The notes below the pieces were generated by a model. The model saw only the letters and a program-made list of their open reading frames with translations, was not told the origin of the DNA and searched no databases. The position numbers and the translations under genes are program-made. A stretch of DNA of 64,000 bases from Candidatus Latescibacterota bacterium (lineage in GTDB: Bacteria > Latescibacterota > UBA2968 > UBA8231): assembly GCA_964291625.2 (NCBI GenBank), contig OZ220089.1, forward strand, positions 1,792,001 to 1,856,000, written 5' to 3'. This document shows, piece after piece, positions 13,149 to 41,677 of the stretch (its first letter is position 1; each line of letters begins with the position of its first letter).

Positions 13149-14207
13149 TCAGAGATGTCCTGCCGACACAGACGACGGCTCGCACAAGGATCTCTCCTCG
13201 GAGTCCGCCCCAGCGCCGATGCCCGGACAGCTTTCCAGGAGAGCCAAGGCCCCTTCCTCCAGGGTCGCGATCTCCAGAAGGCGGTCGTGCAGTCGGTCCA
13301 GGATTGACTCCGTCGCTTTCACATGACCCTTCAGGCAGAGGTTTCTCAGGACGAGCCACTTCTGGGTAATCCTTCGCAGTTGGTCCCCCACATGCGTGAG
13401 TCGCGAATCTCCCACAACCTGAGCTGCTGCCTCGAGGTACTTCCCGTGCCGATCTCGCTCTATCACCACGTTTCGCATTTGATAGTACATCTCCTTGAGG
13501 CGAATCCGCGCCTGATCGGCTTCCAGTTCCTTCCAGCAGGCGAAGTCCCGGGCCAGTCGTCGCAGTCCCCCAAGGCCCAGGGATTCCTCGCCCGTGGATG
13601 TCTCCAATCGCATGGCCTCGAGATTTCTCCGGATGGCCCCTACCGCCTGCCCTCGCGTGAGCCTCCAGCGCGGCTCCGGGCAATGATAGTCCATCCAGGT
13701 ATATTGCGGGATACCCTCTGATCCCCAGACTTCCTTGATGGCCGAGAGGGGCAAGTCCCCCCGGAACTGCACAGGCCAGGCAGGGTCGACGACGTGCACC
13801 GTCCCTGCCGCCTCGTCATAGCCGGCGAGAATGATGTAATGCTCCGAGTGACGCCTCCGGTGGCCAGGGAAGTAATGGGTCCGGAGATGGTAAGTGTCGG
13901 CTGCAGCCACCACGGGATGGCCCTGAGCGATCCGCGCTCTGGCATGCGCCCAAGCGGCCTCTCCGTCTGGATCCTGGTGATTTGCTATTCGGATACTGCA
14001 TCTCCGCAGGCTCTCGATAAAAGGAACGAGACGGTCAATGAGGCGCATATCTCCATCTTCAGGTCGCACGTAGCCAAAGACCCATGCATCGTGCAACACG
14101 AGTGGGACGCAGTACCCATGAAACCTGAGAAGGGCCTCCATGGCACTGAGACCGCAAGGGTAGTACTCGCAGTTCCCAAAGGGCACATCCAGCACGATTC
14201 GATTCAT
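13149..14207 (-). CDS. BtrH-like protein (BtrH N-terminal papain-like fold + DUF4872-like C-terminus), putative ACP-dependent acyltransferase
   Basis: ATG overlaps the upstream stop; candidate Cys/His/Asp triad (YYPCGLSAME, HSEHYIILAGYD, VVDPAW); 'PVVAAADTYHL'; 'GLGGLRRLARD'; ends 'LLEIATLEE'. Confidence 0.75.
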   Translation of the reverse strand: MNRIVLDVPFGNCEYYPCGLSAMEALLRFHGYCVPLVLHDAWVFGYVRPEDGDMRLIDRLVPFIESLRRCSIRIANHQDPDGEAAWAHARARIAQGHPVVAAADTYHLRTHYFPGHRRRHSEHYIILAGYDEAAGTVHVVDPAWPVQFRGDLPLSAIKEVWGSEGIPQYTWMDYHCPEPRWRLTRGQAVGAIRRNLEAMRLETSTGEESLGLGGLRRLARDFACWKELEADQARIRLKEMYYQMRNVVIERDRHGKYLEAAAQVVGDSRLTHVGDQLRRITQKWLVLRNLCLKGHVKATESILDRLHDRLLEIATLEEGALALLESCPGIGAGADSEERSLCEPSSVSAGHL

Positions 14208-14809
14208 TGTTCCCCCTTGTGGCAACCGGGGCACTGCAAGGTCATTGCAAAGACGTGCATTCCAGGGTTGTCCGGAAGTTCTATCGCTGCCAGGCACTCC
14301 GTTGGGTCTATGGCTACCGTCTGGAGCCATATACCGTAGTCAACGCCGAGAAGATCGGTATGGACATCGTGCGTGAGGAAGTGATAACCTCGGCATTCAA
14401 TGGCAACGCGCTCTCCGTACTTCAAGTCGTGACGCAGGCGCCAAGAGCTGAATCCCAGAGGCGTCTCATGTTGCCTGCCACTGACATACACGAATCGGAT
14501 GACATCTTCCAGGCTGTTCTCCTCCGCAGCGCCCAGCAGGAAGAGGTTGGCGAACGTGGCTTGCGATACGGAGATGCGTTGTCCTTCCATCGAAATGTTG
14601 TTGTTCAGGCCGTCTCCCTTGTCGGGGAAGCGAAAGGGCACGCCATGGCACACCACCAGAGCATTGGAGGGCGGCAAGTCCTCCGCTGGATAGGTAACTC
14701 CCTGTCCGGCGAAATCGCCATCCCCACGATTGTGGTCGAATGAAATCCCGTCGTTGTTGAAATAGGGAGTCAGGTCGAGAATCTGACAGGCAATCCAGGG
14801 ATTCGTCAT
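14204..14809 (-). CDS. Hypothetical beta-sandwich protein (resembles galactose-binding-like accessory domains of glycosidases)
   Basis: LDLTPYFNNDGIS...GVPFRFP...NNISMEGQRI...LFLLGAA...IELPDNPGMHVFAMTL; coupled to ACP and BtrH. Confidence 0.6.
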   Translation of the reverse strand: MTNPWIACQILDLTPYFNNDGISFDHNRGDGDFAGQGVTYPAEDLPPSNALVVCHGVPFRFPDKGDGLNNNISMEGQRISVSQATFANLFLLGAAEENSLEDVIRFVYVSGRQHETPLGFSSWRLRHDLKYGERVAIECRGYHFLTHDVHTDLLGVDYGIWLQTVAIDPTECLAAIELPDNPGMHVFAMTLQCPGCHKGEQ

Positions 14810-15117
14810 GGTGATATCGCGCGGTGTGCCGGCAATTTGCTTTCGACGTACTTGCTCAGAGCTTTCACTGAATCGAAGAGCCCTGCCTGCAACTCGTCGT
14901 CCTCTACCTCCAGTCCGAATTCCTCCTCCATGGCGAAGACGATCTCCAAGGTAGCGATCGAGTCCAATCCGAATCCGCCACCGAAGATCGCCTCGTCATC
15001 GGGGATCTCTTCGGGTTTGACCTGAAGTTTGAGCGCCTCAACGATGAGTCTCTTCACCCGCAGGGTTATGTCCGCGTGATTCGCTAAGGGTTTGACCTCG
15101 TCTTGGTCGTGTGACAT
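14806..15117 (-). CDS. Acyl carrier protein
   Basis: GLDSIATLEIVFAMEEEFG with the phosphopantetheine Ser in LDS; acidic; ATG at 15117 after AGGAG. Confidence 0.9.
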   Translation of the reverse strand: MSHDQDEVKPLANHADITLRVKRLIVEALKLQVKPEEIPDDEAIFGGGFGLDSIATLEIVFAMEEEFGLEVEDDELQAGLFDSVKALSKYVESKLPAHRAISP

Positions 15118-15204
15118 TCCTCGTTCTCCTGGCAAGCAAGCGATCTTCCACTTCGCACTCAATCTATCACGAATCGTCCAGGGTTCCAATGGCGCCGGCT
15201 GGCG

Positions 15205-41281: not shown

Positions 41282-41369
41282 GGGCTGGTTCTCACTTGAT
41301 GAGTTGGGAGATGTTGCCGGGCGGGAAGGCGGCGACGGTCGCCTGCTTTTCGCAGGGCCAAGGCCGGCC

Positions 41370-41573
41370 TCACTCGGAGTGCAGGACCTCGGCAGGCCGG
41401 ACGCCGGGCGAGCAGCGCATCCTGCGTTTTCGGACATAGGGAGTCTCGATTCCCTGCACCCGGCAGGCGCGGCCGAAGCCGCGCATGGTCATGCCCAGAG
41501 CGGCTGCGGCCTCCGCGTTGGTATGGTAGAGGCGAGCCACTCGCTCCAGGGCCTCCGGGAAAACTCTCGTCAT
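41370..41573 (-). CDS. Small HTH-like hypothetical protein (67 aa)
   Basis: ALERVARLYHTNAEAAAALGMTMRGFGRACRVQGIETP has a Fis-like HTH pattern; first gene after the sigma54 site. Confidence 0.55.
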   Translation of the reverse strand: MTRVFPEALERVARLYHTNAEAAAALGMTMRGFGRACRVQGIETPYVRKRRMRCSPGVRPAEVLHSE

Positions 41574-41630
41574 GATCCGCTCTCTTGGGACTCCAAGTTG
41601 GACAACTGAGGGCCTGTCGACGCAGATATC

Positions 41631-41677
41631 CGCAAGAGATGTACCCAAGCCGGTGAGACTGCCACAATCGATTGATA
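41631..41677 (-). promoter_or_regulatory. Sigma54 (-24/-12) promoter plus IHF site
   Basis: Minus strand GGGTACATCTCTTGCG (GG-N10-GC) at 41631-41646; TATCAATCGATTG, a perfect WATCAANNNNTTR, at 41665-41677. Confidence 0.65.

Follow-up and report, generated by a model that had tools for sequence, protein, structure and literature searches.

We analyzed a 64,000-nucleotide window of DNA from a Candidatus Latescibacterota bacterium (contig OZ220089.1, here C1; C1:1792001-1856000 of a 5.9-Mb genome whose nearest public relatives are Candidatus Latescibacterota metagenome-assembled genomes), in which a cluster of minus-strand genes joins short Cys-rich peptides to a subtilase of family S8 fused to a TIGR04066/DUF1611 domain. 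This cluster probably, though by no means certainly, represents a leader-dependent system for peptide maturation and export, similar to those of bacteriocins or of RiPPs (peptides synthesized on the ribosome and modified after translation), and belongs to a family that is widespread in Latescibacterota. The gene content, the homologies, the conserved catalytic residues, the leader family and the co-conservation of the genes were observed, and from these we infer every biochemical step.

A preliminary description, made from the sequence alone, had seen a co-oriented minus-strand cluster here, and every gene that it named was found in its place; the observation is confirmed and goes beyond chance. 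Its interpretation as a peptide system that combines leader-bearing precursors with a leader protease, an exporter and enzymes dependent on a carrier protein is upheld, as is the lack of a radical S-adenosylmethionine (radical SAM) enzyme, but the specific assignment to the clostridial Cys-rich peptide (Ccp) system is not supported.

The fusion protein, its loci and the leader-bearing peptides

At the core of the cluster lies a gene (22979-24868, minus strand) that encodes a QhpE-like subtilase fused to the TIGR04066/DUF1611 domain (Peptidase_S8, DUF1611_N and DUF1611_C in Pfam). The residues of the S8 triad (D19, H58 and S202) and of the oxyanion hole (N108) are at least 90% conserved among 52 orthologues, and conservation of the DUF1611 half is very strong, with many motifs at least 90% conserved in the same comparison. 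As the translated start lies only a few residues ahead of the catalytic Asp, judged by inspection, the protein is predicted to be cytoplasmic. The best family match of the S8 domain is the QhpE model NF049966 (149.4 bits against a cut-off of 165), and TIGR04066 matches over model positions 2-360 of 361 (114.7 bits, E 4.6e-33, cut-off 200). The C-terminal half also matches the DUF1611 structure 2g0t (E 0.0019) and, weakly, DgcN, which NCBIfam labels an N-acetyltransferase; beyond that name, we take DgcN to have acetyltransferase activity. The DUF1611 half may use a pantetheine-linked acyl donor. In the accessible part of its source, DgcN is presented as a key gene of a D-Glu pathway.

A scan for the fusion protein in one genome per prokaryotic species returned 62 loci, which by record title comprise 54 from Latescibacterota, two from Gemmatimonadota, one from Candidatus Palauibacter (presumably a member of Gemmatimonadota), one unclassified, and one each from Bacteroidetes, Kryptoniota, Erysipelotrichaceae and Clostridia. 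Six copies of the fusion lie on one chromosome, and many of the carrier genomes come from sponge and marine metagenomes. The counts out of 62 given here rest on tblastn with the window proteins and on open reading frames (ORFs) with a CxxxCxxC motif, and counts of clusters also took in the window and two pieces of a paralogous region. A gene picker based on G+C at third codon positions (GC3) was unsuited to loci of low G+C and also missed a gene of 201 amino acids (aa) in the window; for L053, L059, L060 and L062 a picker of the longest ORF took its place.

The gene set recurs in these genomes together with leader-bearing short ORFs, the check that the preliminary description had called for, rather than as unlinked genes lacking such peptides. 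An acyl carrier protein (ACP) was found at 48 of the 62 loci, a BtrH-type protein at 37 (13 close, and 24 of a distant subfamily that still gives weak BtrH_N matches), and the 201-aa protein, which is AziU2-like, at 12. Thirteen loci (L001-L012 and L046) match the first resistance-nodulation-division (RND) subunit nearly full-length, and 11 of them extend far enough to reveal a beta-propeller gene upstream; the propeller is matched over most of its length at 12 loci, nine of which were mapped. The mapped order is regulator, propeller or propellers, short ORF, thioredoxin-fold protein, ATP-binding cassette (ABC) exporter, in some cases a rhodanese, S8 fusion, ACP, 201-aa protein, BtrH-like protein, periplasmic adaptor of the membrane fusion protein (MFP) family, RND1 and RND2. 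The window differs in that its pump genes sit between the S8 fusion and the ACP. Other recurrent neighbors are ABC exporters, HlyD/MFP adaptors, thioredoxin-fold and rhodanese proteins, AraC-type response regulators, MauE/DoxX, AhpC/redoxin, Yip1, CAAX-protease-like proteins, GNAT proteins and glycosyltransferases. The same genome holds a paralogous set at C1:3444001-3484000 (L065 and L066), with an S8-TIGR04066 gene 46.5% identical to that of the window, an ACP, Yip1-like and ABC genes, an AziU2-like/BtrH-like pair about 20 kb away, and a 353-aa radical SAM protein of no assignable family about 6 kb beyond the ACP.

Two candidate precursor genes lie in the window, both on the minus strand. 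Peptide A (27750-27983; 77 aa, six Cys, acidic tail) starts at an ATG with AAGGGAGG upstream, and peptide B (32321-32539; 72 aa, four Cys, acidic tail) at a GTG with AAGGAGG upstream, so that a ribosome-binding site of the AGGAGG type stands 7-8 nt 5' of each start. The conserved leader claimed for these two Cys-rich peptides is evident, since residues 2-23 agree at 18 of 22 positions; beyond residue 23 the peptides diverge strongly. Both ribosome-binding sites are strong. When 13 propeller-adjacent peptides were aligned (peptide A included), M1, L4, Y19, W26 and C45 were invariant and K6, R11, A18 and C55 nearly so, with two Cys conserved overall. A hidden Markov model (HMM) of the leader recovers propeller-linked peptides at E 1e-6 to 1e-10 and, when run on the window's own genome, has peptides A (E 1e-8) and B (E 2.7e-7) as its sole matches.

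This first leader HMM missed classes with longer leaders, which were recovered by tblastn and a purpose-built regular expression. At loci without propellers, tblastn found precursors with a related leader of the type MK..LHKPQR....VLAY. A broad leader expression (a hydrophobic pair, Ala/Thr, Tyr, acidic residues and at least two Cys downstream) matched 24 short frames, each encoded on the same strand as the fusion gene, at 21 of the 62 loci, compared with one or two loci for reversed and shuffled control frames. The cores behind these leaders fall into unlike classes: some are rich in Cys and Trp and about 50 aa long, some are acidic and Cys-rich, some are hydrophobic and rich in Gly and Ala, and two further kinds measure about 105-110 aa. 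Since one leader type serves many sharply different cargo cores across the locus classes, the conserved fusion enzyme probably reads the leader. The generic hallmark of a RiPP system, a conserved leader and a variable core beside genes for processing enzymes, is present.

One leader type is carried by very unlike cargos at several loci (L013, L015 and L019; L024 and L026; L026, L029 and L052), namely Gly/Ala-rich hydrophobic cores that end in Cys and two kinds of core, about 105-110 aa long, whose Cys-containing tail is conserved. At L035 (12906-13170 and 16262-16560), L036, L037 and L040 the region just 5' of the precursor starts is itself conserved between loci, as seen in translated strings from tblastn. 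This points to a 5' leader or a regulatory site that has been conserved.

The carrier-protein trio and the proposed route

At the low-coordinate end of the cluster, three overlapping minus-strand genes encode an ACP (14806-15117; PP-binding 6.3e-9; ATG at 15117 with GGAG/GAGG ahead), the 201-aa protein (14204-14809) and a BtrH/AziU3-type papain-fold, transacylase-like protein (13149-14207; 352 aa from the start MNRIV). The pantetheine Ser of the ACP is invariant in all 35 orthologues. The 201-aa protein has no match in Pfam or NCBIfam, and its 47 homologues are all unnamed. Its AlphaFold2 model is a beta-sandwich (pLDDT 91.7) that Foldseek aligns with 7wuw_A/8gs1_A (TM 0.85, 26% identity, E 6e-17), and a profile of 29 homologues matches AziU2/Azi28 in the PDB at E 2.3e-34. 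AziU3/U2 has reportedly been described by Kurosawa et al. At L010 (12563-13915) and L011 a Kelch-repeat propeller gene occupies the usual AziU2-like position between the ACP and the BtrH-like gene.

The BtrH-like protein matches BtrH_N (2.3e-15, 57.5 bits) and DUF4872 (1.7e-8, 34.9 bits), both above cut-off, as well as Peptidase_C39_2 (1.5e-7), and its best PDB sequence match is AziU3 (E 8.4e-6, residues 88-262). Among 15 orthologues, Cys59, His164, Asp172 and Asp182 (numbering of the 393-aa ORF) hardly vary; Cys59, His164 and Asp182 are taken as a putative triad from a CtaG-like spacing rather than from structural superposition. The neighboring ACP with its invariant Ser is consistent with a carrier-bound donor. 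Given the AziU2 fold and profile matches and the best PDB match to AziU3, the trio amounts to a carrier protein with an AziU2/AziU3-type pair. The preliminary description was right about the BtrH-type domains, but had left the middle gene as an unknown and so overlooked this pair.

In the accessible text of the sources, CtaG, BtrH and AsbE are classed together as papain-fold ligases with carrier-protein-bound donors (PMC12865890), and AziU2/U3, an aziridine synthase (PMC12865890, PMC12559475), is the nearest solved structure to CtaG yet "functionally unrelated" to the ligases (PMC12865890). The window shares with BtrH, CtaG and AsbE the BtrH_N and DUF4872 architecture, the conserved Cys, His and Asp and an adjoining gene for a dedicated carrier protein; it differs in its presumed acceptor, a ribosomal peptide, in its AziU2-like partner and in its low similarity (24 bits to the DarH model). 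With azinomycin AziU3/AziU2 (7wuw, 8gs1) it shares a clear AziU2 homologue and a coupled neighbor that has AziU3 as its best PDB match, but it lacks a sulfotransferase (no such domain among 20 window proteins scanned with Pfam) and the amino-group carrier protein context, and has an ACP and ribosomal precursors instead. The trio might perform either acyl transfer or elimination/cyclization. At two of the 62 loci, L042 and L043, where tblastn found no BtrH-type gene, the S8 fusion and ACP are followed by a protein with PP-binding and nonribosomal peptide synthetase (NRPS) condensation domains (904 aa in L042, encoded at 12204-14918), and this arrangement favors amide-bond formation.

The route that we propose would begin with the leader (M..L.KK.P.RR....AY, about 19 residues), which the cytoplasmic fusion enzyme would recognize and its subtilase domain would cut after Ala-Tyr. 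Classical subtilisin prefers a hydrophobic residue four positions ahead of the cut and Tyr at the cut, and the leader fits. The TIGR04066/DUF1611 domain and the dedicated ACP would act with the coupled AziU2-like and BtrH(AziU3)-like pair, so that trio and fused domain would build a carrier-protein-borne group or transfer it onto the peptide, in the simplest case as an acyl or aminoacyl group on an amine. The coupled ABC exporter would carry the product to the periplasm, where, in the relatives, a membrane-anchored CxPC thioredoxin-fold protein may oxidize its cysteines, and the MFP and two-RND pump, with an outer-membrane factor encoded elsewhere, would expel it. The propeller encoded beside each precursor, and co-duplicated with it, may be a cargo-specific periplasmic partner, whether immunity protein, chaperone or modifier. 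Overall, the core may be acylated and disulfide-folded.

Several points weigh against this reading. No product, cleavage or modification has been observed, and no RNA sequencing runs were found for 27700-29300. Both family assignments of the fusion protein score under their cut-offs. An ACP is missing at 14 of the 62 loci and a BtrH-type gene at 25, several of these loci being short contig ends. Transacylation by an AziU2/U3-like pair is not assured, given that AziU3/U2 is described as aziridine-forming and functionally unrelated to the ligases. No ACP-loading enzyme was identified: as the preliminary description had noted for the window, there is no loading ligase, and the eight AMP-binding matches in the genome all lie away from the cluster, while the nearest of the three phosphopantetheinyl transferases in the genome is also far off. 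The signal or lipobox-like N-termini of the propeller orthologues were judged by eye only, and the genes that the relatives carry for a thioredoxin-fold protein, a rhodanese and MauE are missing from the window.

The window also has three pump genes, 8 kb in all, between the S8 fusion and the ACP trio, so the trio could serve another pathway. Two unrelated neighbors might then have been read as one, a system that cleaves and exports a peptide bearing no carrier-borne group and a separate small-molecule pathway of ACP, AziU2-like and BtrH-like proteins. The known AziU3/U2 and BtrH enzymes do have small-molecule substrates, and no acceptor residue can be named in the peptides. Against such a division, the locus maps place the ACP gene directly 3' of the S8-TIGR04066 gene, often overlapping it, with an ACP at 48 of the 62 loci; the ACP adjoins the fusion in the Clostridia and Bacteroidetes relatives as well, and a Paenibacillus cluster joins TIGR04066, TIGR04069 and a precursor, as far as the accessible text describes it (PMC10731318). 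We therefore consider two separate systems unlikely, although this is the strongest of the alternatives.

A more ambitious form of the maturation-and-export reading, which we hold only tentatively and think doubtful on present evidence, is that of a phylum-wide, as yet undescribed class of ribosomal peptide natural products in which the fusion cuts an Ala-Tyr leader and the ACP with AziU3/BtrH-AziU2-like proteins, or at some loci an NRPS condensation protein, grafts a carrier-built unit onto several types of cargo. If true, this would be thiotemplated chemistry on a ribosomal scaffold without any radical SAM enzyme. If the more general reading holds, Latescibacterota and some Gemmatimonadota possess a peptide-maturation platform, as yet unexplored, in many copies (as many as six in one genome, on a single chromosome), the products of which should be minable by sequence because the leader is recognizable. 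That reading would also give a first functional context to TIGR04066/DUF1611 domains beside carrier proteins, to AziU2/AziU3-type pairs outside aziridine biosynthesis and to exported 6-bladed propellers paired one-to-one with peptides.

In the literature on TIGR0406x/CLI_3235, on DUF1611 in RiPPs, on BtrH with a precursor peptide and an ACP, and on Latescibacterota RiPPs, we found no description of this type of cluster. The TIGR0406x/CLI_3235 literature yielded genome-mining mentions only, and the accessible parts of that on Latescibacterota RiPPs give only antiSMASH classes or counts of gene-cluster families.

Propellers, export and kinship with known systems

The propellers that the preliminary description had seen as a pair are present and 80.5% identical to each other (propeller 1, 28064-29248; propeller 2, 32601-33791, which includes repeats D2, D3 and D5; both minus strand). 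Propeller 1 is an exported, 6-bladed NHL-like protein with weak matches to DUF5128, TolB_like and DUF4934 (AlphaFold2 pLDDT 83.9), and the best fold match of the model is 4raa (BF0058, an uncharacterized exported Bacteroides protein; TM 0.58, 12% identity), followed by NHL domains. It resembles the Bacteroides BF0058 propellers (DUF5128/DUF4934) in this best fold match, in the weak Pfam matches and in being exported, but the similarity reaches only the TM and identity just given. The Bacteroides exported propellers are, we presume, also linked to short peptides. A predicted complex of propeller residues 46-394 with peptide A scored 0.01 against a mark of 0.32, which is not evidence either way.

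Directly 5' of the fusion gene, and overlapping it at an ATGA in keeping with the coupling claimed earlier, is the gene for a MsbA-like ABC half-transporter without a peptidase domain (24865-26664; ABC_membrane and ABC_tran). On the other side of the fusion gene are the genes for the RND adaptor (MFP, 21779-22969; HlyD_D23, HlyD_3, and TIGR01730 at 169 bits, above cut-off) and two AcrB-family subunits, RND1 (18566-21766; ACR_tran 4e-223; 62-66% identical in syntenic loci) and RND2 (15205-18561; ACR_tran 3.8e-132; conserved in 12 related loci), all on the minus strand. The domains and places given before to these three genes, and to the ACP, the unknown and the BtrH-like gene, are borne out. 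MFP, RND1 and RND2 are syntenic in 12-14 loci. The window thus has the MFP and RND genes of a possible tripartite pump and, as noted earlier, no TolC; candidates for the outer-membrane factor (20 OEP domain matches) are all found elsewhere in the genome.

In the relatives, all 15 members of the thioredoxin-fold neighbor show a CxPC motif and a membrane helix at the N-terminus. A search of the window for thioredoxin-fold, rhodanese, MauE, Yip1, GNAT and GT28 genes found none, and the membrane-anchored CxPC gene appears to have been lost from it.

Instead, peptide and propeller could together make up one periplasmic protein, as its small and its large subunit, comparable to the quinoprotein amine dehydrogenases, in which a beta-propeller subunit bears a small Cys-rich subunit with a cofactor derived from Trp; the protease, ABC exporter and thiol-redox genes would then serve to assemble it rather than to secrete a free peptide. 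According to the accessible text of one source, QhpE cleaves the leader off Cys-rich QhpC while this is still in the cytoplasm, and the ABC transporter QhpF then exports it, the two thereby processing the gamma subunit of quinohemoprotein amine dehydrogenase (QHNDH), and the small subunit of methylamine dehydrogenase has six disulfides (PMC7876137). The window agrees with QHNDH maturation (QhpC/D/E/F) in that QhpE is the closest family of the S8 domain, in a cytoplasmic leader protease gene adjoining an ABC exporter gene, and in a small cargo rich in Cys and acidic residues. Moreover, the peptide and propeller genes are invariably neighbors and duplicate together, all 13 propeller-linked peptides keep Trp26 and two Cys, and MauE/DoxX and thioredoxin-fold genes recur at related loci. 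However, the QhpE score lies under its cut-off, the window has no QhpD radical SAM enzyme and no QhpG, a Pfam scan of its proteins found neither a haem subunit nor a flavin monooxygenase, and the cargo is hypervariable and of several classes. Cargos that have no propeller, Gly/Ala-rich hydrophobic cores included, are also served by this leader and S8 fusion, and some of these loci carry CAAX-protease-like genes, which are typical of bacteriocin loci. An RND efflux pump, which a periplasmic enzyme does not need, is co-conserved with the propeller class, and the propeller is of the 6-bladed NHL type, with an uncharacterized Bacteroides protein as its nearest structure. A pair of enzyme subunits is thus, in our judgment, slightly less likely again than two separate systems. 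Under the maturation-and-export reading, the co-duplicating peptide-propeller pairs offer a testable case of cargo-specific partner evolution.

The preliminary description had also spoken of a Ccp-like leader and of Ccp maturation parts. The leader claim is not supported: at E≤10 no NCBIfam precursor model, TIGR04065 included, matches any of the 13 aligned peptides, and peptides A and B both lack a TIGR04065 match at E≤1. As to the parts, TIGR04066 does match at full length, under its cut-off, but the ACP matches generic ACP families: 17 ACP families of NCBIfam came up at E≤1, TIGR04069 being absent. Nor did TIGR04065 give anything above cut-off in the four genomes that hold L053, L059, L060 and L062.

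The lack of a radical SAM enzyme fared better and extends to most of the family. There is no PF04055 match in the window, and the nearest of the 20 radical SAM matches in the genome lies about 14 kb past the window end. With four radical SAM queries, tblastn found a homologue within 10 kb at six of the 62 loci, leaving 56 without, and frames of 250 aa or more that contain a CxxxCxxC motif occur at seven (the one at L054 looks unrelated), leaving 55 without. A radical SAM/SPASM maturase stands beside the fusion and ACP in the low-GC relatives L053, L060 and L062, and a radical SAM/SPASM gene lies upstream of the propeller in L010 (1796-3403) and L011. A true Ccp-type system with a maturase acting in trans from another locus, for which one could cite the genomic radical SAM matches and the enzymes beside the fusion in the Clostridia, Erysipelotrichaceae and Bacteroidetes relatives and at L010 and L011, is very improbable, since the best TIGR04068 match in the genome reaches 83.7 bits against a cut-off of 500 and lies 1.2 Mb away, most loci have no such enzyme nearby and the precursors do not match TIGR04065.

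In the accessible description of the Paenibacillus SacP23 cluster (PMC10731318), a CLI_3235 precursor, TIGR04068, TIGR04066, TIGR04069, a subtilase and an ABC transporter occur together. As this cluster and the low-GC relatives have a radical SAM enzyme and most Latescibacterota loci do not, the subtilase/TIGR04066/ACP module appears to be shared, with radical SAM as an optional partner. The window resembles the Ccp/SacP23 type in its full-length, though under-cut-off, TIGR04066-type match, small carrier protein, subtilisin-type leader protease, ABC exporter and Cys-rich precursors whose leader has about 19 residues. It differs in the fusion of the subtilase to TIGR04066, the missing radical SAM enzyme, a diderm host of another phylum, precursors and an ACP outside TIGR04065 and TIGR04069, and the added AziU2/AziU3(BtrH)-like pair, secreted propellers and RND pump. 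Judged from sequence, the kinship to the Ccp system is through one domain only.

Duplication, regulators and flanking genes

Read from high to low coordinates, the minus strand carries a LuxR-type regulator, propeller 2, peptide B, a BtrH remnant, a YfbU-like gene, a disrupted regulator, propeller 1, peptide A, a 1.1-kb gap, the ABC exporter, S8 fusion, MFP, RND1 and RND2, and finally the ACP, 201-aa and BtrH-like genes. Besides that between the ABC exporter and the fusion, ATGA start/stop overlaps join ACP to 201-aa gene, 201-aa to BtrH-like gene, and a histidine kinase to a sigma-54 regulator. Most 2-kb bins of the window have a G+C content of 64-73%, which falls to about 55% over both propeller-peptide modules and to 59% over the ACP trio. 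The low-G+C bins are 28001-30000 and 32001-34000, and the GC3 of the propeller genes is 0.57; recent acquisition could account for the low G+C of these modules.

The unit of regulator, propeller and peptide is present twice through a 4.54-kb segmental duplication (27916-30001 and 32472-34660, copies 84-94% identical). The intact LuxR-type response regulator (34018-34656, minus strand; Response_reg and GerE) is upstream of the propeller in relatives too, with full-length matches 41-50% identical in L001, L006, L009, L012 and L046 and a partial one in L008. Its second copy (about 29422-30001, minus strand; repeats D4, D6 and D7 match 33985-34660 at 87-94% identity, with length differences of 66 and 30 nt) is disrupted, and only a 123-aa receiver ORF is left. 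Two regulatory systems had been claimed for the cluster and both are present, with this amendment. The other, a sigma-54 response regulator (35089-36444) and histidine kinase (36441-37670; both minus strand, assigned by Pfam), has homologues that flank only part of the related loci, and its link to the system is uncertain.

Between the duplicated units, the 3' end of the BtrH-like gene occurs a second time, with downstream DNA (repeat D1, 13124-13423 and 31475-31774, 94% identical), as a minus-strand remnant at 31475-31889, which tblastn aligns at 71% identity with residues 213-352 of the BtrH-like protein. On the evidence of these repeats, the stranded copy is best read as a rearrangement scar. 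Also between the units is a minus-strand YfbU-family gene (30802-31368; Pfam 2.7e-10), which has no counterpart in the 62 related loci. Similarly, the minus-strand ABC-2 permeases and ATPase (37785-41281; Pfam), included in the preliminary description, are present, but the permeases have no match in any of the 62 loci; the ABC-2 genes were therefore not counted in the system and, by gene content, probably lie outside it.

Inverted repeats of 41 nt (27185-27225 and 30288-30328, 85% complementary) bracket the unit of peptide A, propeller 1 and regulator. The gap at 26665-27749, the site of the thioredoxin-fold gene in relatives, contains sequence repeated at about 91% identity at C1:1302136-1302771 and C1:1530323-1530958, and the gap at 30329-30794 has a 90% identical copy at C1:1754624-1755096. 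These gap sequences are possibly a mobile or repeated element.

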